NCBI GenBank assembly: GCA_041917855.1
Contig: JAYRWT010000044.1
Span: forward strand, 21,563 to 85,562
Source: Patescibacteria group bacterium
GTDB lineage: Bacteria > Patescibacteriota > UBA1384 > CAILIB01
Length of the DNA stretch: 64,000 bases
Direction: 5' to 3'
Shown: piece after piece, positions 2,917 to 62,637 of the stretch
Numbering within the stretch: the stretch's first letter is position 1
Layout of the letters: each line of letters begins with the position of its first letter
Position numbers and translations under genes: made by a program
Notes under the pieces: model-generated
What the model was told of the DNA's origin: nothing
What the model saw: only the letters and a program-made list of their open reading frames with translations
Database searches by the model: none

Positions 2917-2985
2917 TTGCCCCCTTTTTCATCTACATTTCATCTCACAAAACTAGACTACGTAAGAAAACTCATAAGGAATTAC

Positions 2986-3522
2986 ATGGAGCAAAAGAAA
3001 CCAAATACAACGGTAATCACGGTCGGTGTTCTAGCTCTCGTTCTAGCTATAGCCGGGGGAGTATCACTACTAAATAAGCAAGAGACTACCGAAACAGCAG
3101 ATGCTGAATCTAATGACGGATCCAGGCAAACGACTGCGAGTAGCTCTGCGCAAAGCACGCCAACGAGCAGTGCTACAACTACAGCGGCCAGTACCGCTCC
3201 TGCAACTGCCTCTACGGCTGCAAACACATATAAAAACGGTACGTACTCGGCCAGTGGTACCTACAGTACTCCCGGAGGGGCGGAAAGCATAAACGTAACC
3301 TTAACCATAAAAGATGGTGTAGTTACAGACTCTAGCGTTAGCCAGTCAACGACTAACCGTGAGAGTCAGGAATTCTTTAACTCTTTTGCAGCGAGCTACA
3401 AAGGCAAAGTTGTTGGGCAAAAGCTAGAGAGCCTAAGCCTGAGTCGTGTCTCTGGCTCCTCACTCACCCCAAGAGGATTCAACAGCGCCCTGGCAAGCAT
3501 TAAATCAAAAGCAAAGAGCTAG
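2986..3522 (+). CDS. Membrane-anchored extracytoplasmic FMN-binding (FMN_bind) domain protein with Ser/Thr-rich linker
   Basis: Start moved to ATG 2986, which has an AAGGA Shine-Dalgarno 7 nt upstream. N-in signal anchor (KK then hydrophobic stretch), S/T/A-rich linker, and a C-terminal YKNGTYSASGTY...INVTLTIKDGVVTD...RVSGSSLT segment resembling NqrC/RnfG-type FMN_bind domains with an SGAT-like flavinylation motif (SGSS). Confidence 0.6.
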   Translation: MEQKKPNTTVITVGVLALVLAIAGGVSLLNKQETTETADAESNDGSRQTTASSSAQSTPTSSATTTAASTAPATASTAANTYKNGTYSASGTYSTPGGAESINVTLTIKDGVVTDSSVSQSTTNRESQEFFNSFAASYKGKVVGQKLESLSLSRVSGSSLTPRGFNSALASIKSKAKS

Positions 3523-3523
3523 C

Positions 3524-4387
3524 GTGCAACGTCGAGAATTTGAGGCGATCGGCACGCACTGGATCATAGACCTAGAGTTGCCGGCAAAAACCCATGCCGA
3601 GCAACTTTTTACTACGGTTGATCAGCGTATTGCTCAGTTTGATAAAGACTACTCGAGGTTTCGGTCTGACTCACTAGTGCTGCGTATGGCTGAGCAGGCT
3701 GGAAAATACCGCTTGCCTGCAGATGCACAGCCTATGTTTGATCTGTATCAAAAACTATACACAGTCAGCGCTGGCGCGCTAACGCCGCTGATTGGTCAGG
3801 TTTTGGTTGATGCAGGTTACGATGCAGCCTATAGTTTAGAGCCCAAGCAGTTGCAACGCCCTCCTACCTGGGAAGAGGTACTTATTTATAACTATCCTCA
3901 CCTAACTTTACATAAACCCGCCTTGCTTGATGTCGGCGCAGCCGGAAAAGGTTACCTTGTAGATATTGTCGCAGAAATCTTACGCGAGGCTGGCTGTAAG
4001 CAATTTGTGATTGACGCAGGAGGCGATATAGCTGTAGACGTCTTGGCTAGCACACCGCAACGTATAGGGCTAGAGCATCCCGACGATCCGAGCAAAGCAA
4101 TTGGTGTGGTGACCGTAACAAAAGGTTCCCTCTGTGGCTCGGCGGGCAATAGGCGATCCTGGGAGGGTTTTACCCACACCATTGACCCTTTCACACTTGC
4201 TTCGCCCCGACACCTCAAGGCTACGTGGGTGCGCGCGGAAAGCACCCTGCTTGCTGACGGCTTAGCTACAGCCCTCTCATTTGTAGAGCCCTACGTTTTG
4301 CAACAGCACTTTAGTTTTGAGTATGTAGTGATGCAGGCTAATGATAGTGTTATCTATTCACCTGGGTTTGGCTTGGAGCTTGCCTAG
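3524..4387 (+). CDS. apbE: ApbE-family FAD:protein FMN transferase
   Basis: GAAGKGYLVD motif and ApbE-like length. Preferred start is GTG 3524, immediately after the upstream stop; the tabulated ORF begins at GTG 3446, overlapping the previous gene. No signal peptide is visible. Confidence 0.75.
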   Translation: MQRREFEAIGTHWIIDLELPAKTHAEQLFTTVDQRIAQFDKDYSRFRSDSLVLRMAEQAGKYRLPADAQPMFDLYQKLYTVSAGALTPLIGQVLVDAGYDAAYSLEPKQLQRPPTWEEVLIYNYPHLTLHKPALLDVGAAGKGYLVDIVAEILREAGCKQFVIDAGGDIAVDVLASTPQRIGLEHPDDPSKAIGVVTVTKGSLCGSAGNRRSWEGFTHTIDPFTLASPRHLKATWVRAESTLLADGLATALSFVEPYVLQQHFSFEYVVMQANDSVIYSPGFGLELA

Positions 4388-4402
4388 CGCTATGCTGGAG
4401 CT

Positions 4403-5917
4403 ATGAAGTATATTGATCGTTTTCTCAACGCAATCACCATGTACCGGCTCTTGCTCTATGGGCTGGGCGTGCTGGTTACCGCTGCGTCTGTCCTGAGTTT
4501 ATTTGAGGATGTGCTACCCTTTACGACGCTGGCGTTGCTTGCCTCGCTCGGTGTTGCCCTGGCCGCTTGCGCGGGGAGTAACTGGGCGCTGGCTAAGCTG
4601 TATAGAGTACCCGCGAATGTAGAATCTAGCTACATTACAGCCTTAATTTTAGTGTGTATTATTACACCCACTGTTACTCTTGCTGACCTACTGACCATTG
4701 CTGCTGCTGGTGTGATCGCAATGGCTGCCAAGTACGTTCTGGCAATTAACCAAAAGCATGTCTTTAATCCAGCTGCTGTTGCTGCTGTATTGGTTGTTAT
4801 GCTTGGGTTTCACCATGTTAGTTGGTGGGTAGGAACGGGGGGAATGCTGCCACTTACCTTGGTTTTTGGCTTGCTCATAGTGCGTAAGATACGGCGTGCC
4901 GATTTATTTTTTGCTTACATTGTGCCCTCAGTCCTCATTTTGGCCTACCTCGGTATTGTGGTGGATCAGCGAACAACGGGCGAAGTGTTTGCCGAAATGT
5001 TTCGCTCTTGGCCACTGATTTTCTTTAGCACAGTTATGCTGACTGAACCGCTCACTACGCCACCAACAAGGTGGGGTAGGGTGGGGTACGGAGTTTTTGT
5101 AGCAGTAGTGATGAACAGTCGTTGGCACCTTGGTGCACTTGCTGTATCTCCGCAGTTGGCGCTAGTAGCAGGCAATCTTCTCTCATTTGCACTTAGTCCA
5201 AAACAGCGTCCAACGCTCACGCTCAAAGAAGTTGTAAAAATGGCACCAAATATTTGGGATTTTATTTTTACTCCCTCTGAGAAGGTACGATTTATTGCTG
5301 GGCAGTACGCTGAGTGGACGCTTGCACCAGATAAAGCAGACGATCGCGGTAACCGCCGTTACTTTACTATCGCATCAGCACCGCACGAGACGGATATTCA
5401 TTTAGGAGTAAAGTTCTACAGCCCATCGAGTTCTTTTAAAGAGATGCTCAGAGCCATGCAGCCAGGTGACACGCTTATGCTCGGACAAGTTTGTGGCGAC
5501 TTTGTACTGCCAACTCAGCCTCAACCGCTACTATTTTTAGCAGGAGGAATAGGGGTTACCCCCTTTAGGAGTATGCTGCACCACCTTTTGCAGCAGAAAG
5601 GCCCACTAGACGCTGTGCTTGTGTATTCAGCAGCTAGGGCGGAAGAAGTCGTATATCGCGATACTATAGCCTTAGCCCAATCACGAGGCCTGAGGGTAAT
5701 CTATGTATTGGGCACACCAGACAATGTCCCGGCTGACTGGAATGCACACCTGGGGTACATTACTCAAGAGCTACTAGCAAAATCTGTGCCAGATATTGCC
5801 AAGCGACGCGCCTATATTTCAGGTCCCAATCTATTTGTAGATGCAAGCAAGAAGGCAGTCCGTAGTCTAGGGGTACCAGCTAGCTCAATCGTCACAGATT
5901 ACTTTCCCGGGTACTAG
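4403..5917 (+). CDS. Fusion protein: RnfD/NqrB-like polytopic membrane domain plus C-terminal ferredoxin-NADP reductase-like FAD/NAD(P)-binding domain
   Basis: N-terminal SSYITALIL, HVFNPAAVAAV and TEPLTTPPT resemble RnfD/NqrB motifs (NPFNPAM, TDPVT). C-terminal RRYFTIASAP (RxY[ST] FAD motif) and LAGGIGVTPF (NAD(P)-binding GxGxxP) are FNR/NOX-like. Confidence 0.65.
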   Translation: MKYIDRFLNAITMYRLLLYGLGVLVTAASVLSLFEDVLPFTTLALLASLGVALAACAGSNWALAKLYRVPANVESSYITALILVCIITPTVTLADLLTIAAAGVIAMAAKYVLAINQKHVFNPAAVAAVLVVMLGFHHVSWWVGTGGMLPLTLVFGLLIVRKIRRADLFFAYIVPSVLILAYLGIVVDQRTTGEVFAEMFRSWPLIFFSTVMLTEPLTTPPTRWGRVGYGVFVAVVMNSRWHLGALAVSPQLALVAGNLLSFALSPKQRPTLTLKEVVKMAPNIWDFIFTPSEKVRFIAGQYAEWTLAPDKADDRGNRRYFTIASAPHETDIHLGVKFYSPSSSFKEMLRAMQPGDTLMLGQVCGDFVLPTQPQPLLFLAGGIGVTPFRSMLHHLLQQKGPLDAVLVYSAARAEEVVYRDTIALAQSRGLRVIYVLGTPDNVPADWNAHLGYITQELLAKSVPDIAKRRAYISGPNLFVDASKKAVRSLGVPASSIVTDYFPGY

Positions 5918-12114: not shown

Positions 12115-12681
12115 TTGATACGGCGTGTATTTTTTCATGTGTATACTGAGTGTGTGAATCCAGAGGAAGTCTATCGTCTGCATGTTAAGTCAGTGCACCG
12201 CTACTTTTACTATAAGGGCGTCACTATTAATGATGTAGAGGATCTTGTGCAAGAGTCTTTCTTTAGATTTTTTCAGGCCTATCCCGATCAACGCTCAGAA
12301 GTAGATACTCGCAAGATCCTCTATGTAATTTCACGGAATGTCTGGCGCGAGTGGGTGCGTAATCAGCTAAAACACCGGGTTTACGAATTAGATGAGCTAA
12401 AAGCCATCCCTGAAACGGCAGAAGATTTCTCAGAAGAAGATCCAGCAGAATACGATGGCCAGCGCGCTGTGTTGTTGGCTGTCATTGAGAAGCTAAACCC
12501 AACAGTTAAAGCAGTTTTAACCATGCGATTTATTGATGGAAAAACTAGGAAAGAGATAGCAGCACACCTAGGGATTGCTGAAAAAGATGTGCATACCTAT
12601 CAAAAACGCGGTATTAAATCCTTACACAAACTAGTTGCAAAAGATAAGTCGCTGGGAGAAGTTGTACCCCCTGCTGCATAA
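12115..12681 (+). CDS. ECF-type RNA polymerase sigma-70 family factor
   Basis: Region-2-like segment (DVEDLVQESFFRFF) and region-4 HTH (TRKEIAAHLGIAEKDVHTYQKRGIKSL). TTG start assumed. Confidence 0.7.
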   Translation: MIRRVFFHVYTECVNPEEVYRLHVKSVHRYFYYKGVTINDVEDLVQESFFRFFQAYPDQRSEVDTRKILYVISRNVWREWVRNQLKHRVYELDELKAIPETAEDFSEEDPAEYDGQRAVLLAVIEKLNPTVKAVLTMRFIDGKTRKEIAAHLGIAEKDVHTYQKRGIKSLHKLVAKDKSLGEVVPPAA

Positions 12682-12686: not shown

Positions 12687-14222
12687 GTGGAGATGCATAT
12701 GTTTTCCAAACTATTTACCAACCTACGCCATGCTCTCTACCGTTCGCGCAAGCCTCTCTCTCCGGAGGAGCAGCAGGCAAGTGAAGACAGGGTGTGGCAA
12801 GGCCTCGCTACGAGGTTAAACAACCAATCAATGACTCAGAATGTCACTACGGCCAAGTCAGGTCGCAACAGCCTTTCATTTTTGCTGCCCGCGCTAGCCT
12901 TTGTGCTCGTGCTTGGGGTGGTCGCAACTATGGTGTATCGCCCTCAGCAAAACAAGGAGAAAAATCAGGTAGCAAGCAACGACGTAACAAGTGTCAAAGT
13001 AAACCCGGATATTGTTAACGATGTAGGTGTTGTCGCTCGTAAGCAAGGAGCTACGTCAAATGGAGTGGTTGGCTACGTACCTAAGCCAAAAAAAGCTGCC
13101 CAAGCCAGTCTTTTTGCTAGCACCGCATACGCTGCAGAAGACGAGTACACACCAGTTTTGTTCTACACCAAGAGCAATGCAGGCACACAGTCCCAATTAT
13201 TCTCTTATGATATTACATCAGGTACAGAGAAAGCTCTTACCTCTGCTGACGATTACGCTACAACACCTGTATTTAGTTCAAAAGGTCAGAAGCTGGCATA
13301 CAATATTTTGACGGGTCCAAACTCTAGTATGTTCCGCCCATGTCAGATTGCTATTCAGGACCACACCACAGGTAAGGTGATCGCCACTATCCAAAAGGAT
13401 GATACCCGCTGCCTTATTCCCGTTAGCTGGTCTGCAGACGGTAATTACTTAGTCATTACTGATGACTTTAAGGGTCGTCCACTAGATATCAGTGAGGACT
13501 CGATTATCCCTAAGACCGACACTCATGTACGTGTGTATAACGTGGCTACAAACGTACTTAGCGATTACGTTGAGCCAACAAATCAAGGTGATTGCTTTTC
13601 ATCTGGCGGGTGGAAGGATGATGTAAACTTTTATATCCATTGCTCTACATACGGTGTAAAAGTAGGTAGCGAAAAGCGAAGCGTGTTTAGCATCAACGTC
13701 GACACAAAAGTCGCAACAGAATTTACAGCGCCAACTCAATCGTTCTATGGATTTCAGCGTGTGGGTAATGACGACTTTTACATGGCAAGTATTCCACCAA
13801 AGAATCCTAAGCCAAATAGTAGTTACAGTCCGTATCGTATTGTGCGGCGCTCAGCCACAGACACGGAGCCATTTGTCTACCCGTTTAGTCAAATGACCTC
13901 CAACTTCATGGTGAGTAAAACAAGTAATGGTTCGGCAGGATATGTTGTCGCTGGTCAAACCACCGCAGATTGGTTCGCAGATGAAGATCCTGATGCCAAA
14001 ACCAGTCCGAGTTGGTTGGCCAAGGGTGGTGTGGTCATGTTTGATGTTAAAACAGGTAAGCCGACTCACTTTAATACCGCAAAAGGTTATGTTGAGTTAG
14101 TTGGTTGGTATGGTGATTATACTCACATTATTTACGTGAATAGTGAAGATAGCGGTGCACGTCAGTATCGTCTGCTCAACCTGCAGGATGGCAAGGATAG
14201 CCTAATCAAGAGTGTTGAGTAA
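12687..14222 (+). CDS. Putative anti-sigma factor: cytoplasmic N-terminus, one TM helix, extracytoplasmic TolB/WD40-like beta-propeller domain
   Basis: Directly downstream of the ECF sigma; TM at about aa 62-85; the large extracytoplasmic part has propeller-like repeats (FYTKSNAGTQSQLFSYDITSG, SWSADGNYLVITDD). Confidence 0.5.
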   Translation: MEMHMFSKLFTNLRHALYRSRKPLSPEEQQASEDRVWQGLATRLNNQSMTQNVTTAKSGRNSLSFLLPALAFVLVLGVVATMVYRPQQNKEKNQVASNDVTSVKVNPDIVNDVGVVARKQGATSNGVVGYVPKPKKAAQASLFASTAYAAEDEYTPVLFYTKSNAGTQSQLFSYDITSGTEKALTSADDYATTPVFSSKGQKLAYNILTGPNSSMFRPCQIAIQDHTTGKVIATIQKDDTRCLIPVSWSADGNYLVITDDFKGRPLDISEDSIIPKTDTHVRVYNVATNVLSDYVEPTNQGDCFSSGGWKDDVNFYIHCSTYGVKVGSEKRSVFSINVDTKVATEFTAPTQSFYGFQRVGNDDFYMASIPPKNPKPNSSYSPYRIVRRSATDTEPFVYPFSQMTSNFMVSKTSNGSAGYVVAGQTTADWFADEDPDAKTSPSWLAKGGVVMFDVKTGKPTHFNTAKGYVELVGWYGDYTHIIYVNSEDSGARQYRLLNLQDGKDSLIKSVE

Positions 14223-14258
14223 GTAGTGCGGCCGCTAGCGGCATAGGGCAGTAGGCTA

Positions 14259-14292
14259 GTAGAGTAAGGGGGAGACACCCCTTACTCTACTG
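14259..14292 (+). terminator. Strong perfect hairpin (14-bp stem, 6-nt loop) between the anti-sigma gene and the heliorhodopsin gene; terminator or attenuator
   Basis: AGTAGAGTAAGGGG-gagaca-CCCCTTACTCTACT; no T-tract follows. Confidence 0.5.
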
Positions 14293-14361
14293 TGTGTGGC
14301 TACACGTCACTACTTCCTTTGTAGAACTATGTATACTAAACGTACATAAGTAACCTATGCC

Positions 14362-15126
14362 ATGCAAAGCCAAAAAACCTTTAGCACCCTTAACCGATAC
14401 AATCTTGTAGCGGCGCTCCTGCACGCTGTGCAGGGTATTGCCGTGATTATTCTTAGTCGAGATTTTTCTCTGCCGATAAGTACTAGTTTCTTAAAGTTTG
14501 ATACAGCTAGCCAGACCTTACTTCCGTCTAGCGATACTGTGTTTAACCTTTCGCTGCCAGCACTACTAGCAGGTTTCTTCTTTCTCTCCGCTCTCTTTCA
14601 CCTAATTATTGCTACGTTCTACCGCAAAACCTATGAGACTAACCTAGAGGTTGGCCTCAATAAGGCGCGTTGGCATGAGTACTCTATTTCGGCCAGCGTA
14701 ATGATGGTGGCTATCTCACTCTTGGTAGGTATTTACGATCTTGGTAGCTTGCTCATGATTTTTGGACTCACTTGGGGAATGAACCTTATGGGCTTAGTCA
14801 TGGAAGTGCACAACCAAACAACCAAGACAACCAGCTGGCTGTCTTACTGGGTTGGCTGTGTGCTCGGGGCTATCCCATGGTTGGTGGTGGCACTCTACCT
14901 GTGGTCAGGCTACGCGAATGGCAGTGCTGCTCCAACCTTTGTATACTGGATTTTTGTTTCAATCTTTGTGTTCTTCAACTGTTTTGCCATCAACATGTGG
15001 CTGCAGTACAAGCAAATTGGTCCCTGGAAGAATTACCTGTACGGCGAGCGTGCGTACATGATCTTAAGTCTGGTTGCAAAAACACTACTAGCCTGGCAGG
15101 TATTTGGCGGAACACTCCGTCCTTAG
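14362..15126 (+). CDS. Heliorhodopsin (7-TM retinal-binding protein, inverted topology family)
   Basis: 254 aa; collinear similarity to heliorhodopsin 48C12 along the whole length (NRYNLVAALLHAVQGIAV; WHEYSISASVMMV with the counterion Glu; FVYWIFVSIFVFFNCFA; GERAYMILSLVAKTLLAWQVFGGTL with the Schiff-base Lys). Confidence 0.85.
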   Translation: MQSQKTFSTLNRYNLVAALLHAVQGIAVIILSRDFSLPISTSFLKFDTASQTLLPSSDTVFNLSLPALLAGFFFLSALFHLIIATFYRKTYETNLEVGLNKARWHEYSISASVMMVAISLLVGIYDLGSLLMIFGLTWGMNLMGLVMEVHNQTTKTTSWLSYWVGCVLGAIPWLVVALYLWSGYANGSAAPTFVYWIFVSIFVFFNCFAINMWLQYKQIGPWKNYLYGERAYMILSLVAKTLLAWQVFGGTLRP

Positions 15127-15146: not shown

Positions 15147-15178
15147 AAAAAGAGGTCGCTTCATCGCGACCTCTTTTG
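15147..15178. terminator. Bidirectional rho-independent terminator between convergent genes
   Basis: AAAAAGAGGTCGC-ttcat-GCGACCTCTTTT, a perfect 9-bp stem flanked by A/T runs on both strands. Confidence 0.7.
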
Positions 15179-15188: not shown

Positions 15189-16100
15189 TTACTGGCAGTA
15201 GTCACTTGTTTTACCTTCGGTACCTGATCCTGGTAGTGCTTTTGCTGTAGTAGCGTCAGGCTCTGGCAGCGCATTCAACCAGCAGGTTCCGTAGTAGCTG
15301 AGCTCGGTAAATTGCCCCACTTTTTTCTGGAAGGTCGTTGAGCGTGAGGCTTGGTTGGCTTGGCGTAAATCGTATACACCAAAGTCAAAGCTGACGTTGC
15401 TGGTAGCACGGAACCCAACTTCTGTAGCTATAGCTGTTCCTTTACTAAAGCTTAAACCACTGGGAAATGGTGTGGTTTGCGACGCATCCTTCTTGGCGGC
15501 TGGTAAGTGCGCATCTACAAGTTTCTGCAGCTCTGGCGTAAGGGTAAGCAGGTGGTCGTAGCGGAGTAGATAGCCGCAAGGGTGAACAAAGTCGAGCATG
15601 GTTTGTACCTCTCCAGCTTCAATGTAGCGCGAGCCTCGCAGAAGTGAGCTATCAAGTGCTAGTGTCACCCCTACAGCGTTGCGTGTACCTGTTTGACTCT
15701 GCCCATCAAAGCGAAAACCGCCGTGAGGTTTGTAGTTACCGCCCCGCGTTTGACCGGGGTATAGAATGGCCGTGGCAAGCTGTATGTTTGTGGGTGTGGC
15801 AAGCCCAAGTGGGGTTGGGCAACTTGGTGCCGATCCTAAAGCCTTCCAGCCCTCACCGCTATACGACCAGGATACTGCCGTACTAGGCTCTGTGGCCTTG
15901 GGACTACTTGCCGCTGTGGCCTTTGTACTGCTCGCCGGCGTTTTGCTGGTTTCGGTGCCGGACTTGTCGGTGGCGGTGTCTGCAGTGTTTTCGGTGCGCG
16001 GGCGCATTGCAGCCGTGGCTCCTAAAATTACGCCAATGATAACTACAGTAGATAATCCAATAATAAGGATTCGACTTGGGTGAGGGGTAGGGTTGGGCAT
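15189..16100 (-). CDS. Hypothetical membrane-anchored secreted protein with Thr/Ala/Ser-rich linker
   Basis: N-terminal signal anchor, low-complexity linker, C-terminal globular domain with Cys residues; no recognisable family. Confidence 0.45.
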   Translation of the reverse strand: MPNPTPHPSRILIIGLSTVVIIGVILGATAAMRPRTENTADTATDKSGTETSKTPASSTKATAASSPKATEPSTAVSWSYSGEGWKALGSAPSCPTPLGLATPTNIQLATAILYPGQTRGGNYKPHGGFRFDGQSQTGTRNAVGVTLALDSSLLRGSRYIEAGEVQTMLDFVHPCGYLLRYDHLLTLTPELQKLVDAHLPAAKKDASQTTPFPSGLSFSKGTAIATEVGFRATSNVSFDFGVYDLRQANQASRSTTFQKKVGQFTELSYYGTCWLNALPEPDATTAKALPGSGTEGKTSDYCQ

Positions 16101-16233: not shown

Positions 16234-17046
16234 CTAGGCAATTGATTCACGCACCACAGATACAATGCGCTCAATTGTGTCGTTGACCAAGTAGCAGGTT
16301 GCAATGCTGCCATCATAGGTTGCGCCAAACTCGTTTACCTGGCGCATGCCAAGGGTAGAGTCGTAGGCTGCTAAGCTTTCCTGTTCACCACTGTCCTCCA
16401 TGCGTTTTTGTAGACGCTCAAGCAATGTGTCGAACACAGGATCAGGTGGTAGCAAGTAGATGAGGGCAGCTCCTGTGGTTTCTTGATCTAGGCCAGCAAC
16501 AAGCTGGGCAACTACCTCAGCCGATTCCTCTACAAGACAGAGAGGGCTCTGCAGAGCTGCTTCTAGATGGGCTCTCTGAAAGCCATACCAGCCGCGCCCC
16601 TCGCGGAACTTTTTGGTTACAAGTTCTCCGTTTGCCTCTAGCTGTTTGTAGACTTCTTCAGTTACAAAGTGGTAGTCCACGCCGTCTGTCTCGTTTTCAC
16701 GAGGTTTGCGGGTTGTGGTGTTCAAGAGACGAGTCGCGCCGGTTTCGTTCAAGACTGCCTGAATAAAGGTTCCCTTGCCAACAGCGCCAGGGCCGTTGAT
16801 GGCCAGTACGCGCCGGGGTTTAGCCAGTGCGTCCGTAAGGTTGGATCGCGTTGCCGCCTCTAGGGTTGCAACAACCGATTCGTTCGGGACAGTATCCTGC
16901 CCCTGCCAGTAGTTGAGTGCGCTGCTGAGTGCATCCCGCCACCCTTGGCGCATGGTCGCGGTGAACTGCTGTAACTCACGCTGTTGAGTGGGGGAAGGTG
17001 TTTCTGCCATGGGGTTAGTTTTAGCAAAAATATGCAATTTTGACAA
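16234..17046 (-). CDS. Guanylate kinase-like P-loop nucleoside monophosphate kinase with ~70-aa N-terminal extension
   Basis: P-loop INGPGAVGKGT and the Gmk hallmark TTTRKPRENETDGVDYHFVTEEVY. Confidence 0.6.
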   Translation of the reverse strand: MSKLHIFAKTNPMAETPSPTQQRELQQFTATMRQGWRDALSSALNYWQGQDTVPNESVVATLEAATRSNLTDALAKPRRVLAINGPGAVGKGTFIQAVLNETGATRLLNTTTRKPRENETDGVDYHFVTEEVYKQLEANGELVTKKFREGRGWYGFQRAHLEAALQSPLCLVEESAEVVAQLVAGLDQETTGAALIYLLPPDPVFDTLLERLQKRMEDSGEQESLAAYDSTLGMRQVNEFGATYDGSIATCYLVNDTIERIVSVVRESIA

Positions 17047-17207
17047 TGAATATGATAGAGCCAGCTGCTAGCTGAGGCTCGTGTGTACACATTTATTTCA
17101 CACTACTAAGAGCGCGCTGCATAGACAAAAACCAAGATTTCCCGTATACATATAAAGCTAAATTCTTACGGCAACTTCTGCGCGAGAGTTAGCTCTGGAG
17201 AAAGATA

Positions 17208-17828
17208 TTGACACAACGAGGTATTGGAATCGTCCTCATGGGCCCCCCGGGCTCAGGCAAGGGCACACTTGGTGAGCGACTGCTCGCCACCGACTGGGGA
17301 AGAACGAAACTTAAACGAGTAGTCTCCCACACTGACCGACCAAGGCGAGAAAGTGATCACGAAGGGCAATACGAGTTCATCACTAAAGAAGAGATGGATG
17401 CAGTCTTTGCCGAGAGTGGCTGGGCAACACACGGTGAAATGAATGGTATTCGCTATGTGTACCGGCGCAGCAGCATCTTGAGTATTGTGGAAGCGGGCGA
17501 GGTGCCCCTACTCGATATTCGCACGCAGACACTAGCACGGCTAGTGACGAACGTGCCTGAGCTTGATTTTGCTGCTATGCTGGTTCACCCTGGCAATGTG
17601 CAAGACCTGCTTAACAGGATCATCGGCCGCGATGGCGACTCGCCATCAAGTCGGGACCGTGCCGCTCTTGCGGTAGATGAGTATGCCTGTGCTCGTACAC
17701 TGCTGCGGCAGCGCCCAGGCCTCTACACTACCATCTATAACCGAGATGGCGAGCAAGAAGCAGCCTTTGGCGCCATGCTTACTTTCTTGGGCAAGTATGT
17801 GCCTGAACTCATTGCGGTTCCGGCGTAA
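17208..17828 (+). CDS. Guanylate kinase-like P-loop kinase (paralog, divergently transcribed)
   Basis: P-loop LMGPPGSGKGT and TDRPRRESDHEGQYEFITKEEM, i.e. a Gmk-like TTRPxR...DGxDYxFV pattern with TDR in place of TTR. Confidence 0.55.
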   Translation: MTQRGIGIVLMGPPGSGKGTLGERLLATDWGRTKLKRVVSHTDRPRRESDHEGQYEFITKEEMDAVFAESGWATHGEMNGIRYVYRRSSILSIVEAGEVPLLDIRTQTLARLVTNVPELDFAAMLVHPGNVQDLLNRIIGRDGDSPSSRDRAALAVDEYACARTLLRQRPGLYTTIYNRDGEQEAAFGAMLTFLGKYVPELIAVPA

Positions 17829-17968
17829 TCGATCGTTTGGTCATTCTGATTGGGGCGCGCGTAGGCGTGCCCCGTTTTTTATTTCCTTTAGTCAGCGTAG
17901 CGCCAATCGTAGTTTGTAGTTGGTCAGAACTCCATCGTATACTAGTGGTATCACACTTAACATGTACT

Positions 17969-19381
17969 ATGGGCACACATAAGGTATCTCCTGTTCTTTG
18001 GATTGGTTTGATCGTAGTTTTGCTTGGTGGGGGTGTGGCGGTATATAGCCAGCGTAATACAAAAGAAGAGCAGGGCAAGAATCAAGCTGTTGATAAAAAA
18101 GAAGATCAGGGTAAAACTACAGGTGCGCTCACACCTGCAAAATCGAATGGGTACACAGGCTTAGCTGGTGACGTTATTAGCAGTAGCGCGTTCGAGTGTC
18201 AGCCGCGTAGCGAGCACGAGTGGTATCGTACCGATCGTACTTTTGCAGTAGATCCTAAGAATCCACAGGTGATGTACACCAGTGTGGAGTATAAGGGTGT
18301 GTACAAATCTGTCGATGGCGGTACAACCTGGAAGTCTGCCAGCAAGGGGATTCGCGCCTACAGTCGCCAGGATGACAAAACAAAGCCCTGCTATAGCGAG
18401 TATCCGGTGATCAAGATTAACCCCAAGGACAGCAATCACATCGTGATCGCTATCAGTAGTGGCGGCGGTGGCCATCTACACCCAACTAACATGAACCAGC
18501 AAGTGGGCGGTGTCTACCAGAGCTTTAACGCAGGTGAAAGTTGGGAACTGATGATTGATAACACCATGAACACCTATGTTACTGACGTGGTATTTGACGC
18601 CGATGGCGCGGTATACTACGGCACAGCTTCTAACCCAGGATCGTGGACCGAGGCTGACCAGAACCAGCTCTTCGTCAGCAAGGGGCTTATCTATAAAACC
18701 AGCGACAAGGGGAACACCTGGACTGAGCTGCCAACCGGCATTGGCAGCCGAACCTCGGCGACTAAGGTGTTCGTCAACCCGGCAAATACCCAGCAGATTA
18801 TGGCTCCGACCTACTCGGCAGTGCGACAATCGGCTGATGGCACGGGGACGGGTATCAGCACGGGTAAAGATACAAACGTAGCTCAGCTGGGAATTTTAAG
18901 CTCAAGTGATGCTGGTAAAACCTGGAAGCGCATTGCGCTGCCTGGAAACGTGCCGGTGCTGAGTGCCGCAGTTTCGTCAGCCAAGTTTGCTAACCAGATC
19001 TACATTAGTGCAACAACCGACGAGTCCTTTGTTACCTTTGACGCAGGCGCTACTTTTACCAAAACCAAGTACCTGAACACCGTCGCCTACGACCCATTCG
19101 ACGCGACTGGCAAGCACCTGCTAGCCTACAGTATGCAGTCCATGAACGGGCCAGGGCTAAATTTACACGAGAGCCTTGACGGTGGGCTTACCTGGAAAGC
19201 AAAAGGCTCGCTGCCACGCGAGATTACTGACCTGAACGATAAAAAGACCCGCGTCAGCAACCTATTCTGGCACCCAACCGACAAGAACACTATCTATATG
19301 AATGGTGCTTCCGGGTACCTATGGGTCAGTACCGACCTAGGTACAACCTGGAAGCGTCTACTTACCTATACTGACTTATAA
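17969..19381 (+). CDS. Secreted BNR/Asp-box repeat protein (sialidase-/Ycf48-like beta-propeller)
   Basis: Start moved to ATG 17969 (MGTHKVSPVLWIGLIVVLLGG signal anchor). Five or more SxDxGxTW Asp-box repeats (SVDGGTTW, SDKGNTW, SSDAGKTW, SLDGGLTW, STDLGTTW). Confidence 0.65.
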   Translation: MGTHKVSPVLWIGLIVVLLGGGVAVYSQRNTKEEQGKNQAVDKKEDQGKTTGALTPAKSNGYTGLAGDVISSSAFECQPRSEHEWYRTDRTFAVDPKNPQVMYTSVEYKGVYKSVDGGTTWKSASKGIRAYSRQDDKTKPCYSEYPVIKINPKDSNHIVIAISSGGGGHLHPTNMNQQVGGVYQSFNAGESWELMIDNTMNTYVTDVVFDADGAVYYGTASNPGSWTEADQNQLFVSKGLIYKTSDKGNTWTELPTGIGSRTSATKVFVNPANTQQIMAPTYSAVRQSADGTGTGISTGKDTNVAQLGILSSSDAGKTWKRIALPGNVPVLSAAVSSAKFANQIYISATTDESFVTFDAGATFTKTKYLNTVAYDPFDATGKHLLAYSMQSMNGPGLNLHESLDGGLTWKAKGSLPREITDLNDKKTRVSNLFWHPTDKNTIYMNGASGYLWVSTDLGTTWKRLLTYTDL

Positions 19382-21273: not shown

Positions 21274-21580
21274 TTCAGGGGTTTGCTGCAGATTTATAGC
21301 GTTCTGCTCCTCGCAATCTAACAAGGTTAGGGAGCTTTTTGCTCGATCTGTGATAGTGCGGTATTGCTGACCAGTAGTTTCTGCCAGGGTGGCACAGTCT
21401 AAGTTCGATAGGTGCACGGCTTTTGACTGTGACGGTCTAATGTATGTTTGGTTATTTGGCACTTCTATGTATGCACATACCACATCGCAGGCATCACGGC
21501 TCAAAATTAAACCTTGCAAATAGCGCAAAGAAAAAAGCACAGCGACGATTGTCGCTGTGCCGAGAGGGTCGGTGACTGCG

Positions 21581-21754
21581 CTACGCTTCTCGAGGGATTC
21601 GCGTACTGCAGCCAGTTGACGTTCCTTCTGTGCCTGCCCGCTCTGCCATGATGGTATCCACCATCTTTGCCAGTTTCGGGTGGTTGGTCTTGATTGCTTC
21701 GGGAGTCATGCTACCGAGCAACTTTTCAACTTGCTTTCTTTTATTTTGCGCCAT
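21581..21754 (-). CDS. Small ORF (57 aa) overlapping the 3' end of the upstream gene; possibly the N-terminal fragment of a frameshifted gene
   Basis: ATG overlaps the C-terminal codons of the 567-aa gene; a GAGGAG Shine-Dalgarno lies 5 nt upstream. The reading continues in another frame as the 21202-21540 ORF (EKRSAVTDPLGT...). Confidence 0.25.
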   Translation of the reverse strand: MAQNKRKQVEKLLGSMTPEAIKTNHPKLAKMVDTIMAERAGTEGTSTGCSTRIPREA

Positions 21755-24387: not shown

Positions 24388-24461
24388 TGGCAGGGGCACT
24401 AGGAATCGAACCTAGAACAAGGGTTTTGGAGACCCGTGTGATACCACTTCACCATACCCCT
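24388..24461 (-). tRNA. tRNA-Trp (anticodon CCA), 3' CCA encoded
   Basis: Manual cloverleaf: acceptor AGGGGTA/TGCCCCT, anticodon loop CTCCAAA, T-arm CTAGG-TTCGATT-CCTAG. Confidence 0.8.
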
Positions 24462-24587
24462 ACAACGTTCGAAGTATACCAAATCATTTCCACTCTTTCC
24501 AGGTCTGTCGCGCTAAAACAAATCTACCACTAGATAAGAAATCAGGGCCAATCCTGAATAGAAAAGGCCCTGTGCTGACGAGTGTTG

Positions 24588-24914
24588 CTAAACCTCAGCT
24601 GGCTGGGGCTCGGCTTTGAGTAGTGTTCTGATTTGTTGCAAGACCACTGGGTAATTTCTCCCTGTGATTGTGTGCGTTGAGCCGTCTGACTCTAGAACCA
24701 CCTTTGCCTCAATTGATCGAACATACTGGCTGTCGGCAAGTCCGTCGCACCAGAAGCGGTTTTGCCCATCCTCTTGCAAGAAAACTCCCTGGTTTTTGTA
24801 GTGCGCGACCCCTGCTGGGGTGAGTTGGCTACGATAGTCCACATGCTGGACTCCCTGTATCTTTTCCATAGCAGAAAATTTATACCAGATTTCTACAACT
24901 AAGCCAAGCAACAT
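24588..24914 (-). CDS. Hypothetical protein (108 aa)
   Basis: ORF between tRNA-Trp and rpmG; no motifs recognised. Confidence 0.3.
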   Translation of the reverse strand: MLLGLVVEIWYKFSAMEKIQGVQHVDYRSQLTPAGVAHYKNQGVFLQEDGQNRFWCDGLADSQYVRSIEAKVVLESDGSTHTITGRNYPVVLQQIRTLLKAEPQPAEV

Positions 24915-24964
24915 ACCAAAAAGACCGACGTAGGCCGGTCGTAATGGCTGCAGGGCAAGGGAGG

Positions 24965-25135
24965 CTACTTTACCTCTTTGAACCAGACGTACTTTTTGAC
25001 GTCAGGAGCAAAACGCTTCAGGCGTAGCTTCTCTTTGTTGTTTACCTTGTTGCGCTCAGTTTGGAAACGGTGCTTAGACTCTTTCTTGTCTTCGGCAGCC
25101 ATCCAAACCCAGCTGCGATTGCCTTTCTTGGCCAT
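24965..25135 (-). CDS. rpmG: 50S ribosomal protein L33 (zinc-less form)
   Basis: 56 aa, MAKKGNRSWVWMAAEDKKESKHRFQTERNKVNNKEKLRLKRFAPDVKKYVWFKEVK. Matches the L33 pattern KNKxN..(D/E)KLxLKK(Y/F)xP...KHV..KExK. Under 60 aa, so absent from the ORF table. Confidence 0.75.
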   Translation of the reverse strand: MAKKGNRSWVWMAAEDKKESKHRFQTERNKVNNKEKLRLKRFAPDVKKYVWFKEVK

Positions 25136-25170
25136 GGTCGGAGGGTGGTGAATAAAATATGGTTGCTAGT

Positions 25171-25256
25171 TGGTGGGCAGACTAGGATTCGAACCTAGGT
25201 AGGCGTATGCCAAGAGATTTACAGTCTCCCCTCGTTGACCGCTTGAGTATCTGCCC
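25171..25256 (-). tRNA. tRNA-Tyr (anticodon GTA), class II with long variable arm, CCA encoded
   Basis: Acceptor GGGCAGA/TCTGCCC, anticodon loop CTGTAAA, T-arm CTAGG-TTCGAAT-CCTAG. Confidence 0.85.
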
Positions 25257-25273
25257 ATATGCAACTTGTTATT

Positions 25274-25348
25274 TGGAGCCCCTTCAGAGAATCGAACTCT
25301 GCTCTATAGTTTACAAAACTACCGCTCTAACCACTGAGCTAAAGGGGC
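25274..25348 (-). tRNA. tRNA-Thr (anticodon TGT), CCA encoded
   Basis: Acceptor GCCCCTT/AAGGGGC, D-arm GCTC-AGTGGTTA-GAGC, anticodon loop TTTGTAA, T-arm CAGAG-TTCGATT-CTCTG. Confidence 0.85.
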
Positions 25349-25746
25349 AACGATCTGCGTTGCTGTCTGCCTCGACCCCTATTAAGATTCCGAAATGTGG
25401 GGGTTAATGAGTGACAGTTCGGACAAACAAGCCGTAGGTTCTCTGGTCTACTGTTCTGGTGATCACCATTGATGTGGTCGACCTCCAGTGGGACTTTGCC
25501 TGTGATAGGATTACGTTCCTGCCAATTGCAGAGTGAACAGCGCTCACCATGCTGTTCTAGAAGATAGCGCTTAATAGAGTATGAAACTCCACTCGCTGCT
25601 GTACCTTCTAACTTCCCACAAAGCCAGTCAGAAATCCTATTGGCATACTGAAATGCTTGCTGGCAACTCAAGCTGCAGTATACTGCGGGGGTTCGTTTAA
25701 CGGGCTTGCCACAGTTTTTACACAAATTTCGTACTTTTCTAGGCAT
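25339..25746 (-). CDS. HNH endonuclease
   Basis: VDHINGDHQNSRPENLRLVCPNCH is a classic HNH motif; N-terminal CxxC zinc ribbon. The 3' end overlaps the 5' end of tRNA-Thr(TGT) by about 10 nt. Confidence 0.75.
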   Translation of the reverse strand: MPRKVRNLCKNCGKPVKRTPAVYCSLSCQQAFQYANRISDWLCGKLEGTAASGVSYSIKRYLLEQHGERCSLCNWQERNPITGKVPLEVDHINGDHQNSRPENLRLVCPNCHSLTPTFRNLNRGRGRQQRRSLPL

Positions 25747-25814
25747 AGTTTATGTATCAGATTAAACTGATTCGCCAAGAATTGTCCGATGTCGTTGAAA
25801 AGGTGCGATTTTTC

Positions 25815-25890
25815 TGGAGCCCTTGACCGGGATTGAACCGGTGACCTCTTCCTTACCATGGAAACGCTCTACCAACTGAGCTACAAGGGC
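25815..25890 (-). tRNA. tRNA-Thr (anticodon GGT), CCA encoded
   Basis: Acceptor GCCCTTG/CAAGGGC, D-arm GCTC-AGTTGGTA-GAGC, anticodon loop ATGGTAA, T-arm ACCGG-TTCAATC-CCGGT. Confidence 0.85.
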
Positions 25891-26250: not shown

Positions 26251-26841
26251 GTGCCTAGCTACGCCGATCCCACAATTGTACAGCTCGACGAAAAACCACG
26301 GGTCGCACCTGCAGCCTATATTGTACTTGTGGCTGGTATCCTCTCCGTGCTTGCTGCGCTTGGCTTCATGGTCATGTCTATGATCACGCAAAATAAGGCC
26401 AAGGATCTTCAAACCCAAATCTCAGCCGCTCAAGCTCAACTCAGGGCACTTGAGCCAACTGCAAATGAGCTAACTAAGCTCGATCGTCAGGCAACCAACC
26501 TGCATACTCTCTTCGACAATCAAAAAGAGTGGCAATTTGTGTTCAACCACATTGAAAACAGCCTATATAAAAATATGAAAATTAGCCGCGTCGCACTCGA
26601 CGACAGGGCAAAATTCACCCTTGGAGGTACCACTAAGAGCTACGTAGACTACGCCAAAATCTACCAAAGCCTTACTGATGATGTTGGCAAAACATTCTAC
26701 TCCAGTGTCAGGCCGGCTAGCATAACTCGCATAAATGCCACAGATGGCAGTGTAGATAGCGTGCAGTTCACCTTTGATCTCGTCTTGCAGCCGAGCGTCT
26801 TAAATGCGCGCAAGAACTACGTACCACCGCAAGCAAAATAA
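26251..26841 (+). CDS. Type IV pilus assembly protein, PilN-like (bitopic)
   Basis: GTG start with an AAGGAGGAG Shine-Dalgarno; single TM then a coiled-coil and periplasmic-type domain; sits at the head of the T4P locus. Confidence 0.5.
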   Translation: MPSYADPTIVQLDEKPRVAPAAYIVLVAGILSVLAALGFMVMSMITQNKAKDLQTQISAAQAQLRALEPTANELTKLDRQATNLHTLFDNQKEWQFVFNHIENSLYKNMKISRVALDDRAKFTLGGTTKSYVDYAKIYQSLTDDVGKTFYSSVRPASITRINATDGSVDSVQFTFDLVLQPSVLNARKNYVPPQAK

Positions 26842-26845
26842 AGAT

Positions 26846-27505
26846 ATGGCCGCAGCAAAAAACCCAACTCAGCAAACTGCACTCATCGGCTTTCTTTTAG
26901 TCATCCTAGGCTTTGCGTTGGTCTTTTATATTTTTTCGCCGCAGTTAATTACCGCTCGCACGGAATATGAGACACGACGCGCAGAGCTGCAAGGCTATAA
27001 GAAAGATGTCGAAACCCTGCAAAGTGCCAGCAAAAAGCTAGAAAGCGCTAAGGCTGCGCTCGTTGCGGCAGGTGTTAAGCTTGAGAATTCTTCAATAGTC
27101 GTTCCCAAAACAGAGAATGTTCCAGATCTCTACCTGCAAATGGAAGACCTTGTTGCACGTACTAAGTTTTACGTAAGTGACACTACGTATCTAATTGGTC
27201 AGCCCGCCGGTACAGCAGCAACAGCAGAAGGCGCTACAAAATCTGAGGTGACTATTCCAGTTACAGTTAGTTTTGTCGCGACGTACCCAGCACTCAAGGC
27301 GTTTATTCAAGAAATGCAGGTTAACACTCGTCCACTTAGCATTACGCAGGTCACCATGAATGAAATTGCTAAGACCACCGCTAAGGCAACTGGGCCAAAT
27401 GATGCGCCAACCAAATCGTATCCAGATGGCAGCTTTGCCGTAACACTTACCGCCTTTGCCCGAGCCGAAGCTCTATCTTCTGCATACGGTGGAGGAACTA
27501 ACTAG
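26846..27505 (+). CDS. Type IV pilus assembly protein, PilO-like (bitopic)
   Basis: Start moved to ATG 26846 (MAAAKNP...); single TM plus a coiled coil; position in the locus. Confidence 0.45.
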   Translation: MAAAKNPTQQTALIGFLLVILGFALVFYIFSPQLITARTEYETRRAELQGYKKDVETLQSASKKLESAKAALVAAGVKLENSSIVVPKTENVPDLYLQMEDLVARTKFYVSDTTYLIGQPAGTAATAEGATKSEVTIPVTVSFVATYPALKAFIQEMQVNTRPLSITQVTMNEIAKTTAKATGPNDAPTKSYPDGSFAVTLTAFARAEALSSAYGGGTN

Positions 27506-27509
27506 GCAT

Positions 27510-27833
27510 ATGGCTAAACCAATTTCTGCACAAACAATCTGGTCTATCATGTCGGCACTGGTAGTTGTACTGGTGGGCGGTGGTATGGCCTATATGTTTT
27601 TTGTAACAGCGGCAGTGCCCGAGATTCAGCCCCAGCCAAAGCAATTTGCCACCAATGCCATTACCGAGCTCACACGCGACGCTGATCTAACGGGTTTGGA
27701 AAAATTTTCCTCAAATGTCTTCTTTAAGACTACCAAGATGCGAGCCTTGCCAGTCCCTTACGATGGTAAGCCCGCAGTTCCGTACAACCGTACTACGGAG
27801 TTTGGTAAATCAGATCTGAGTTCAGATAAGTAG
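27510..27833 (+). CDS. Small bitopic membrane protein of the pilus locus (possible PilP-like accessory)
   Basis: Start at ATG 27510 (MAKPISAQ...); one TM helix. Confidence 0.35.
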   Translation: MAKPISAQTIWSIMSALVVVLVGGGMAYMFFVTAAVPEIQPQPKQFATNAITELTRDADLTGLEKFSSNVFFKTTKMRALPVPYDGKPAVPYNRTTEFGKSDLSSDK

Positions 27834-27840
27834 GTCGCAG

Positions 27841-30240: not shown

Positions 30241-30252
30241 TAAAATAACCAT

Positions 30253-31323: not shown

Positions 31324-31457
31324 CGAATTACCAATGCAGCGGATTTCATTGTCACTTACTCCGTTCCTCGTTCACTGCACTGCTAGTGCGCTTCACTACG
31401 GTACTCGACGTTTCTTGAAATCCATCTGTCTGGGTAATTCGTACAACTTCTAACTAG

Positions 31458-32663: not shown

Positions 32664-32757
32664 GTTTACCTAGATGGGCAAAGTGTTGACAGGGGTTTTA
32701 GGCAGTACCCATAATAGTAATATCAACTTAGTAATCAAACATAAGTAGGAGGGATCA

Positions 32758-33381: not shown

Positions 33382-33397
33382 CTCTTCCTAAAGCTGC

Positions 33398-33430
33398 AAA
33401 AGACCCGGATCATGGATCTGGGTCTTTTTG
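33398..33430 (+). terminator. Rho-independent terminator after the major pilin gene
   Basis: AAAAGACCCGGATC-atg-GATCTGGGTCTTTTTG. Confidence 0.7.
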
Positions 33431-33459
33431 TGTCTGAGTGTAGGATATATAATTAAGAC

Positions 33460-34514: not shown

Positions 34515-34516
34515 CC

Positions 34517-35152: not shown

Positions 35153-35157
35153 CTAGT

Positions 35158-37525: not shown

Positions 37526-37554
37526 ATCCAGATCATACCGTATACTTTTGGCAT

Positions 37555-38346: not shown

Positions 38347-38367
38347 CATGGCTACTAAGGCTTAACC

Positions 38368-38988: not shown

Positions 38989-38992
38989 AGCC

Positions 38993-41491: not shown

Positions 41492-41494
41492 CGT

Positions 41495-53968: not shown

Positions 53969-53977
53969 GCTAGAGCT

Positions 53978-61362: not shown

Positions 61363-62637
61363 ATGATCAATCGTAGCAACACAATCCGAAACATTCTCGG
61401 TGTGTTGGCCATTGCCTCACTGCTGGGTGGAGTAACCTCCTCTGCTCTTGCCGCTGAGCGCGCTCGTTTCAATGACCTTAGTGGTGACCTTGAAATGCTG
61501 CGTGGCCGTAATATTACCAAGAATGGTCCGGTAACCAAAGTTGGTTCAGATCTTATCGATCCTGTATCCGACGTAGAGAATAATGACCTGGTAGATGTGT
61601 GGTTGTACTACCACAACACCAACCCGAGTGCAGTAGCTGAGAATGTTCGCCTAAGGGTAAACCTTCCTACTACCGCCTCGTATAGCCACAAGATTACAGG
61701 ATCGATTTCTGCAGATAACGCAGACACTGTAACCGGTACCGTGGTGAACGGTGTAGAAAAAGGTCAGCCAGGCATGACCATTAACACGGTCAAACTATCT
61801 AAGATCAATTACGTTCCAGGTTCCTTCAAGTGGTACCCGAACGTAACCAGTCTAGGTATTACCAATTCAGCAGCCCTCCCAGGTGGTCAGAACGGTGACA
61901 CGCTTGTTTCAGGTGGTATCACCATCGGCGATCTGAACGGTTGTTTCCAGTACTCTGGTTTCGTAAAGGTTACCGTTAAGGTAATCGACGAGCCGGTACA
62001 GGAAGATAAGGCCATCCTTTCGGTTTCTAAGGACGTTCGTCTCGATCAGAGCGGTACGGTCTTTACCGAAGAGAACCGTATCAAACCAGGTGAGCAGGTT
62101 GTGTACCGTCTAACCGTTCGCAACAGCGATGGTAAGGGTATTGCCAAGAACGTTCGCCTAAAAGATACACTGCCTGCTGGCGTAACCTATGTTGGTCCAA
62201 CATACCTGACCCGCAACGGTAACACTGTACAGCTTCCAGATGGAATCACCTCTGCTGAAGGTATTGTCATCTTGAGTGATCTCCAGCCACTGGAAACGGT
62301 CACCGTAACCTTTAAAGCTAAGTCTGCTACTACCTTTGTTAACGACTCCTGTGTTGTGAACACCGTTCGCGTCTCAGGTCAGAACGTGGCAAACAACCCA
62401 GCAGATGATACTGCCAAGACGTGTTTCGATGTGCCGCCTACTCCTACTCCGACCCCAACCCCTACACCAACTCCAACTACTCCTCCGGTGAACCCACCGC
62501 ATGAGCTGCCAAAGACTGGTGCCGAGGTTAACCTGCTTGCAGGTCTTGGTCTCGTAGGTGCCGCCGGTACAACTGGCCGCTACCTCCAGCTTAAGCGCAA
62601 GCTGAAGAAGAGTGCTCGTTCGCTCGACATCATCTAA
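61363..62637 (+). CDS. LPXTG cell-wall-anchored surface protein, paralog of the upstream gene (DUF11-like domain, PT-repeat stalk)
   Basis: Signal peptide; the N-terminal domain parallels the upstream protein (GDLNGCFQYSGFVKV vs GNINGCYQYTQAV). (PT)n linker. C-terminal LPKTG, a hydrophobic stretch and an RYLQLKRKLKK tail. Confidence 0.7.
   Translation: MINRSNTIRNILGVLAIASLLGGVTSSALAAERARFNDLSGDLEMLRGRNITKNGPVTKVGSDLIDPVSDVENNDLVDVWLYYHNTNPSAVAENVRLRVNLPTTASYSHKITGSISADNADTVTGTVVNGVEKGQPGMTINTVKLSKINYVPGSFKWYPNVTSLGITNSAALPGGQNGDTLVSGGITIGDLNGCFQYSGFVKVTVKVIDEPVQEDKAILSVSKDVRLDQSGTVFTEENRIKPGEQVVYRLTVRNSDGKGIAKNVRLKDTLPAGVTYVGPTYLTRNGNTVQLPDGITSAEGIVILSDLQPLETVTVTFKAKSATTFVNDSCVVNTVRVSGQNVANNPADDTAKTCFDVPPTPTPTPTPTPTPTTPPVNPPHELPKTGAEVNLLAGLGLVGAAGTTGRYLQLKRKLKKSARSLDII
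62437..62486 (+). repeat. Coding Pro-Thr dipeptide tandem repeat (PTPTPTPTPTPTPTTPP stalk)
   Basis: cctactcctactccgaccccaacccctacaccaactccaact. Confidence 0.6.

Follow-up and report, generated by a model that had tools for sequence, protein, structure and literature searches.

A TaHeR-like heliorhodopsin in a Saccharibacterial contig: an intact gene of a known kind, with no retinal-pathway genes within 64 kb

Introduction

How might a heliorhodopsin (HeR) obtain its retinal, and on what might it act, when neither a retinal-pathway gene nor a recurrent partner gene lies beside it? The question is raised by a gene at positions 14362..15126 (+) of a 64,000-nucleotide stretch from a Patescibacteria group bacterium (contig JAYRWT010000044.1 of assembly GCA_041917855.1, forward-strand positions 21,563 to 85,562), the whole of which we call the window. 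An earlier note, drawn up from the letters of the window, had read the 254-residue open reading frame (ORF) as a heliorhodopsin set between two strong hairpins. We find that this annotation is correct and that neither the kind of gene nor its occurrence in this host lineage is new, because both HeRs of Saccharimonadia (Chiriac 2022) and retinal scavenging by Saccharibacteria (Jaffe 2022) have been published. The reading that we favour, with a probability of roughly 0.7, is that of a functional TaHeR-like HeR in Saccharibacteria which would take its retinal from outside, be transcribed on its own and serve as a slow light sensor acting on an unlinked partner.

A screen of 1326 genomes of the candidate phyla radiation (CPR) returned 98 HeRs, of which Saccharimonadia account for 80; SLVAK is one of the most frequent retinal-binding motifs (Chiriac et al., 2022, Microbiome, PMC9166423). 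The window HeR shares both the lineage and the SLVAK motif with these proteins and is one more of the set. Rhodopsin-bearing Saccharibacteria lack blh, and it has been proposed that they scavenge retinal from their hosts (Jaffe et al., 2022, PMC9296517). The Saccharibacteria rhodopsins of that study (SacRs) come from the same phylum and are likewise retinal proteins without blh, their chromophore being proposed to come from actinobacterial hosts. They are, however, type-1 rhodopsins with a DTS motif and outward proton-pumping activity, whereas the window HeR belongs to the other family and has the opposite predicted orientation in the membrane.

Results

Identity of the gene

The predicted protein is covered end to end by both profiles of the family. 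It matches Pfam PF18761 with E=2.5e-95 and 318.9 bits (threshold 26.7) over profile positions 1-242 of 242, and the NCBIfam HeR equivalog NF038020 with 321.5 bits (cutoff 100) over positions 1-244 of 244. When the ORF was scanned against Pfam at E<=1, Heliorhodopsin was the sole family to appear and there was no match to the type-1 family Bac_rhodopsin (PF01036). The motif in the seventh transmembrane helix (TM7) is SLVAK rather than the DxxxK expected of a type-1 microbial rhodopsin. The coordinates given in the earlier note are exact: the ORF begins with ATG, and an in-frame stop lying four codons 5′ of it leaves scant room for a longer N-terminus.

Among solved structures the best match is TaHeR (6IS6, E=3.7e-76), followed by 48C12 (6SU3, E=5.9e-55). 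The alignment with 48C12 runs as one collinear stretch, pairing query residues 5-254 with residues 7-255 of the 6su3 chain; this bears out the helix-by-helix collinearity that had been claimed for that protein, although TaHeR aligns better. By BLASTP, identity is 50% to TaHeR over 248 residues and 41% to the 48C12-numbered chain 9LJJ. We regard the fold as settled because of the E-value near 1e-95 and the 50% identity to a crystal structure. Judged by its sequence, then, the ORF is a genuine and intact heliorhodopsin of the TaHeR-like type.

Functional residues, topology and selection

Functional positions were mapped by reading the HMMER alignments to TaHeR and 48C12 position by position. The counterion of TM3, E106 in the motif WHEYSIS, corresponds to E107 of 48C12 and E108 of TaHeR. 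The Schiff-base lysine of TM7, K240 in SLVAKTLLAWQ (S236-L-V-A-K240), corresponds to K241 and K238, respectively, and S236 to S237 and S234. These are the two residues that the earlier note had picked out. Its refuting outcomes, a better fit to an unrelated seven-helix family or a misplaced lysine or glutamate, were looked for and neither was seen. The histidine pair H21/H80 is equivalent to H23/H80 in 48C12 and to H23/H82 in TaHeR, and further conserved positions include S76, N100, W104, S110, E148, W173 and S236.

A lateral fenestration that may bind carotenoid has been defined, in 48C12 numbering, by aromatic residues at 162 and 206, small residues at 166 and 210, G169 and N207 (Kornilov 2025 preprint). 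At the sequence level the window HeR has all six (Y162, C166, G169, F205, N206 and A209). In an alignment of 51 CPR-clade HeRs drawn from genome loci, E106, K240, H80, N100, W104, S110, E148, G169, W173, F205, N206, A209 and S236 are invariant (51/51), position 162 is always aromatic and position 166 is small in all but two.

At each of 17 functional positions checked, the window HeR carries the same residue as TaHeR, the protein of Thermoplasmatales archaeon SG8-52-1 (PDB 6IS6, 7CLJ, 7U55). The shared residues include, in TaHeR numbering, H23, S78, H82, E108, S112, N143, E150, Y164, C168, G171, F203, N204, A207, S234 and K238. TaHeR differs in being archaeal, whereas the window HeR is from a CPR bacterium and is known from its sequence alone; the extracellular loop between TM5 and TM6 is also four residues longer (GYAN) in the window HeR. 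With the founding and actinobacterial HeR, 48C12 (PDB 6SU3/6SU4, 6UH3), it has E107, K241, H23, H80, S76, N101, S237 and the fenestration residues in common, whereas S112, N138 and Q213 of 48C12 are replaced by A, T and M, the last two being TaHeR-like.

Lysines and arginines number 8 on the predicted cytoplasmic side, made up of the N-terminus and loops TM2-3, TM4-5 and TM6-7 (10 if R12 and R230 at the boundaries are counted), as against 3 on the other side. Together with homology to solved HeRs, this positive-inside count supports an inverted topology in which the N-terminus would be cytoplasmic and the C-terminus outside. Comparison with strain-level relatives yields five synonymous changes and one non-synonymous change (dN/dS ~0.06); against other Saccharibacteria HeRs dN is 0.13-0.29 and dS is saturated. 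On these substitution counts the gene is intact and under strong purifying selection.

Relatives and phylogenetic placement

More than 6,500 proteins match the window HeR at E<=1e-30. Its exact sequence is already present in NCBI-derived data, where close relatives are titled 'heliorhodopsin HeR [Candidatus Saccharibacteria bacterium]'. In contigs representing one genome per species, nearly all relatives come from metagenome-assembled genomes (MAGs) of Candidatus Saccharibacteria/Saccharimonadales, at 50-80% identity, followed by HeRs of Caldisericota and Actinomycetota at ~45%. The closest relative in a representative genome (L002) is 80% identical; leaving strains out of account, the protein collection has none closer than 83%. 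In a quick neighbour-joining tree, built from loci chosen for their similarity to the window HeR, the protein pairs with L002 (ELA587 MAG) as its sister, within the clade of Saccharibacteria. No relatives on viral contigs were found.

Two further observations come from the same comparisons. In the tree the archaeal TaHeR branches amid HeR lineages of the CPR, and its identity to the window HeR (50%) stands above the ~45% of the Caldisericota and Actinomycetota proteins; on a quick tree of similarity-selected loci, this hints at inter-domain transfer. A Saccharibacteria-clade HeR also occurs on a contig labelled Burkholderiaceae, which would be a diderm (L020, JAYVTZ010000007.1). It is 65% identical to the window HeR and nested within Saccharibacteria, and the locus has a GC content of 42.7%. 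Mis-binning of the contig is the most likely explanation, rather than a heliorhodopsin in a diderm.

The organism and the supply of retinal

The host affiliation suggested by the HeR is matched by the window's topoisomerase I (TopA), whose named relatives are Patescibacteria. A type IV pilus cluster at 27841-40421 encodes PilB, PilT, PilC, several pilins and the prepilin peptidase PilD. There are two DUF11 surface proteins, and ORF 61363..62637 ends with LPKTG followed by a hydrophobic stretch and a basic tail. The remaining content includes housekeeping genes, and no outer-membrane families turned up in the Pfam scans of window ORFs. The description of a pilus-rich, LPXTG-encoding and CPR-like genome therefore holds, and its LPKTG sortase signal and Patescibacteria/Saccharibacteria affiliation are markers of a monoderm-type envelope, as expected of an organism that carries a HeR.

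All 63 ORFs of at least 90 residues were scanned against Pfam, and the ten that had no Pfam hit were also searched against NCBIfam. None of the 63 belongs to SQS_PSY, Amino_oxidase, Lycopene_cycl, BCD/Blh, RPE65 or the polyprenyl synthases, in agreement with the claim that no retinal-synthesis genes lie within the 64 kb, and none encodes a type-1 rhodopsin. By analogy with published Saccharibacteria, we infer that retinal may be acquired from the host or the surrounding community. In Jaffe 2022 (PMC9296517, citing Shihoya 2019), the apoprotein of TaHeR is described as taking up retinal rapidly through a hole, and its host is likewise described as having no retinal pathway.

Hairpins and transcription

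Both hairpins that the earlier note had placed around the gene (14259-14292 and 15147-15178) are real, to within 1 nt. The upstream one (14258..14291, +) has a perfect 14-bp stem and a 6-nt loop (-29.5 kcal/mol, z=-5.3). The downstream one (15148..15177) has a 12-bp stem and a 6-nt loop and can form on both strands (-22.4 kcal/mol and z=-6.2 on the + strand, -22.6 and z=-5.3 on the - strand). Of 200 shuffled sequences, none folded as well as either hairpin (0/200).

Their roles appear to differ. The downstream hairpin, with a run of A on one side and of T on the other, stands between HeR and a convergent gene for a 303-aa protein (15189..16100, -) and is a probable bidirectional intrinsic terminator. 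The upstream hairpin begins 36 nt past the stop of the preceding gene (12687..14222) and has no U-tract; it is probably the 3′ end or a stabiliser of the transcript that precedes HeR, and the sole strain difference in its stem is a C to T change that retains a G-U pair. A scan for the terminator consensus flagged neither hairpin. The description of HeR as a well-insulated monocistronic unit is therefore no more than plausible. HeR has no Shine-Dalgarno motif, which is normal for this genome since just 14 of the 63 window ORFs have one. Footprinting of hairpins and promoters against the strain-level contigs, which are ~99% identical, gave no separable signal.

Genomic neighbourhood

The second gene upstream of HeR, which shares its strand, encodes a sigma-70 factor of the extracytoplasmic function (ECF) type (12139..12681, +), with matches to Sigma70_r2, r4 and r4_2 and a weak match to Sigma70_ECF. 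A gene for a 511-aa protein begins 5 nt after it (12687..14222, +). Hydropathy predicts a cytoplasmic N-terminus of ~60 aa, one transmembrane segment (60-87) and a large extracytoplasmic domain. No Pfam family scored above threshold against this protein, which gave only a faint PD40 repeat, and its N-terminus searched alone had no match. From position and topology alone, it is a putative anti-sigma factor, the external domain of which is possibly a beta-propeller.

Four contigs, in which HeR has one amino-acid difference, keep the same order: thioredoxin/DsbD, a 324-aa DUF3137-like protein, ECF sigma, the 511-aa protein, HeR, the convergent 303-aa protein and guanylate-kinase-like genes. The arrangement of sigma factor and 511-aa protein is kept among near-identical strains only. 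In the 83% relative (L086:5535-7183) HeR is tightly flanked, with glyoxalase encoded 50 bp upstream of it and a Cupin_2 protein 20 bp downstream; Cupin_2 adjoins HeR at 4 CPR loci. In the 80% relative the neighbours differ from those of both the window and the 83% relative. An association of HeRs with glyoxalase and oxidative stress is said to have been proposed by Bulzu et al. in 2021, and the glyoxalase neighbour at L086 fits it.

We considered whether some other gene is a conserved operon partner, and three analyses of the relatives led us to reject this. Of the window genes lying at 5-24 kb, a tblastn search of 80 HeR loci found none conserved beside HeR; de novo clustering of 792 flanking ORFs found no family in more than 8 of the 80 loci; and a Pfam census of two ORFs on each side (194 ORFs of 51 CPR loci) found no dominant family. 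The most frequent in the census were ABC_tran (5/99), Cupin_2 (4) and VKOR (3), with sigma factors outside the 25 most frequent families. The window HeR is a stand-alone gene, and Saccharibacterial HeRs have no conserved genomic partner. In this they resemble the ~61% of helR genes that stand alone (Cho 2024). The same survey lists ten recurrent neighbour classes: glutamine synthetase, NAD+ synthetase and photolyase, along with MerR, TerC, ABC transporter, short-chain dehydrogenase/reductase, alpha/beta-hydrolase, DUF2177 and DUF2238. None of the ten adjoins the window HeR, the nearest ABC transporter being ~21 kb away, which places it in the 'helR alone' category.

Sigma factors beside HeR were found by an iterated profile search of the HeR loci only in Caldisericota, at four loci, to which tblastn adds three more from the same phylum. 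At these seven Caldisericota/Cryosericum loci (L053, L054, L056, L057, L061, L067 and L080; e.g. L057:2003-4345 and L054:6569-8563), HeR is flanked by a divergent ECF sigma gene and by a gene for an uncharacterised 223-aa protein. At six Caldisericota loci a convergent gene downstream of HeR encodes an aldehyde:ferredoxin oxidoreductase, identified on one representative, which is curious given that the HeR cofactor is an aldehyde. We also compared the upstream regions of the window's sigma and HeR genes by eye for a shared promoter motif and rejected it: there were only trivial likenesses (GTGGCT, ACGT..CACT) at differing spacings, and two sequences offer no statistical power.

Other features of the window

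The pilus genes form part of a larger pilus/competence-like locus (26251-42391) with PilM/GspM-like genes, PilB, PilT, PilC, at least six prepilin-type genes and PilD, broken at 35158-37525 by an oppositely oriented block of TPR and ABC-2 transporter genes. DprA and RecR are encoded at 51105-54604, which is consistent with DNA uptake. At 3446-5917 (+), a gene for an ApbE flavin transferase is followed by one for a 504-aa protein in which an RnfD/NqrB-like membrane domain (a weak match) is fused to an FNR-type NAD-binding domain. Just upstream are genes for an FMN reductase, a SnoaL-like protein, an HxlR regulator and a lactate permease. Together these may constitute a membrane redox module based on flavin, something not usually expected in a CPR genome of reduced metabolism.

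Adjoining the 303-aa gene are two divergent guanylate-kinase-family genes (16234-17828) encoding proteins of 270 aa (-) and 206 aa (+), the former with an N-terminal extension of ~90 aa. A 95-nt 'tRNA-Asn' with anticodon ATT, called by ARAGORN at 18727-18821 (-), lies inside the BNR/sortilin-like ORF 17837..19381; it has no Rfam support at the gathering threshold and is probably a false positive. A tRNA cluster at 24388-25890 (-), comprising Trp, Tyr, Thr-TGT and Thr-GGT, is split by an ORF for a 135-aa HNH endonuclease (25339-25746). Finally, four gaps of 400-530 nt (2917-3445, 21274-21740, 42392-42842 and 56294-56700) hold no ORF of at least 90 aa and no Rfam match at the gathering threshold.

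Discussion

The conservation described here suggests how the window HeR may work. The seven-helix protein would be inserted with its N-terminus in the cytoplasm and would hold all-trans-retinal on K240 through a protonated Schiff base, E106 serving as the counterion and H21, H80, S76 and S110 forming a hydrogen-bond network behind it. The chromophore would be supplied by the host or community, most likely entering through the fenestration lined by Y162, C166, G169, F205, N206 and A209. The gene would be transcribed on its own between the bounding hairpins. As a slow-cycling light sensor, the protein would then most likely modulate a partner, encoded elsewhere, by direct contact at the cytoplasmic face. 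We adopt a partner-modulating role because of precedent: according to the published accounts, HeRs bind and modulate glutamine synthetase (AbHeR), photolyase (TfHeR) and the ABC exporter OmrDE (OcHeR). Those three belong to the same family as the window HeR and are co-operonic with their partners, whereas the window HeR is not. A sensory role related to oxidative stress has been suggested for CPR HeRs (Chiriac 2022, PMC9166423), and this would be compatible with the thioredoxin/DsbD and ECF genes close to HeR.

Several observations weigh against this interpretation. None of glutamine synthetase, photolyase or the ABC exporter is adjacent to the gene, and a partner cannot be named. The absence of a retinal pathway is seen in 64 kb of a ~1 Mb genome, whole-genome absence resting on the literature. 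A scan for sigma-70 consensus promoters upstream of HeR found none, the nearest thing being a -10-like TATACT at 14332-14337. Moreover, since the upstream hairpin has no U-tract, read-through from the operon of the sigma factor and the anti-sigma-like protein is possible.

That operon is the starting point for a quite different view, in which HeR is part of a light or photo-oxidative stress module: either the neighbouring ECF sigma factor would direct its transcription, making HeR one of the genes of a regulon that answers photo-oxidative stress of the envelope, or HeR would pass a light signal to the anti-sigma-like protein by contact within the membrane. The arrangement is suggestive. HeR is directly preceded, on its own strand, by the sigma gene and the co-transcribed gene for the single-helix 511-aa protein; a thioredoxin and DsbD pair is close by, and the order is retained in four strain-level contigs. 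Light and singlet-oxygen responses are under ECF control in the CarQ/CarR and RpoE/ChrR systems, and the seven Caldisericota loci independently have a divergent ECF sigma gene, ~240-280 bp from HeR in four of them and up to ~450 bp away in the others. Such wiring, if true, would be the first transcriptional output pathway for HeRs, with the Caldisericota pairing as a second instance. We nevertheless consider either version highly unlikely. No sigma factor lies beside HeR in the other ~50 CPR loci, and the relatives at 83% and 80% identity have unrelated neighbours. The strong hairpin at 14258-14291 stands between the sigma pair and HeR, and upstream of HeR there is no ECF promoter of the GAAC-N16/17-CGT type, GAAC and CGT being just 13 nt apart. 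The anti-sigma assignment has no domain support, two lineages with a HeR/ECF pairing against ~0.4 expected is a marginal excess, and no paper among those searched links HeRs with ECF sigma factors.

The remaining alternatives concern what the protein does with light, if anything. The fenestration could be a carotenoid site, so that an exogenous xanthophyll would be recruited along with retinal and the protein would be a two-antenna harvester made for light capture over signalling (Kornilov et al., 2025 preprint). All six residues of the proposed site are present, their conservation across the clade is as strict as reported above, and in an envelope of the monoderm type the outer leaflet would be open to carotenoid. 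The preprint, however, bases carotenoid binding by HeRs on docking and sequence statistics, neither binding nor energy transfer being demonstrated there; HeRs from outside the viruses are not known to have an energy-conserving output, and the same fenestration is already accounted for as the route of retinal entry. We therefore think an antenna role improbable, if the least so of the alternatives, and it would in any case be compatible with the sensor that we favour. Light-gated proton transport, as in the viral V2HeR3, seems very unlikely. A proton-transporting HeR has been described (eLife 2022, PMC9448325), and Saccharibacteria have few means of energising their membrane (Jaffe 2022, PMC9296517). 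Yet the window HeR is 50% identical to TaHeR, with all the pocket residues checked in common. Both 48C12 and TaHeR reportedly showed no ion transport in the work of Pushkarev in 2018 and Shihoya in 2019, which counts against transport here. In addition, the preprint places the transporting viral subfamily wholly in the group without the fenestration site, which the window HeR possesses, and the protein clusters with Saccharibacteria and has no viral-contig relative that we could find. As for a chromophore-less relic, an opsin without retinal that is decaying or has been co-opted to a non-photic role, the lack of a retinal pathway in the window would fit; we give the idea hardly any credence in view of the strong purifying selection and of a lysine, counterion and pocket residues that are invariant over 51 clade members. 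None of these rivals, whether carotenoid antenna, proton transporter, ECF-coupled sensor or relic, is favoured by the data.

The stand-alone, partner-modulating sensor that we prefer has a practical consequence. Because Saccharibacterial HeRs have no conserved genomic partner, analysis of their neighbourhoods will not reveal what they act on and biochemistry will be needed. The window HeR offers a clean example for such work: the gene is intact and under strong constraint, its product is TaHeR-like with every fenestration residue in place, its bearer is an episymbiont, and pathway genes are lacking nearby. It is for these reasons a reasonable candidate for testing whether a chromophore, possibly including a carotenoid, is acquired from the host.

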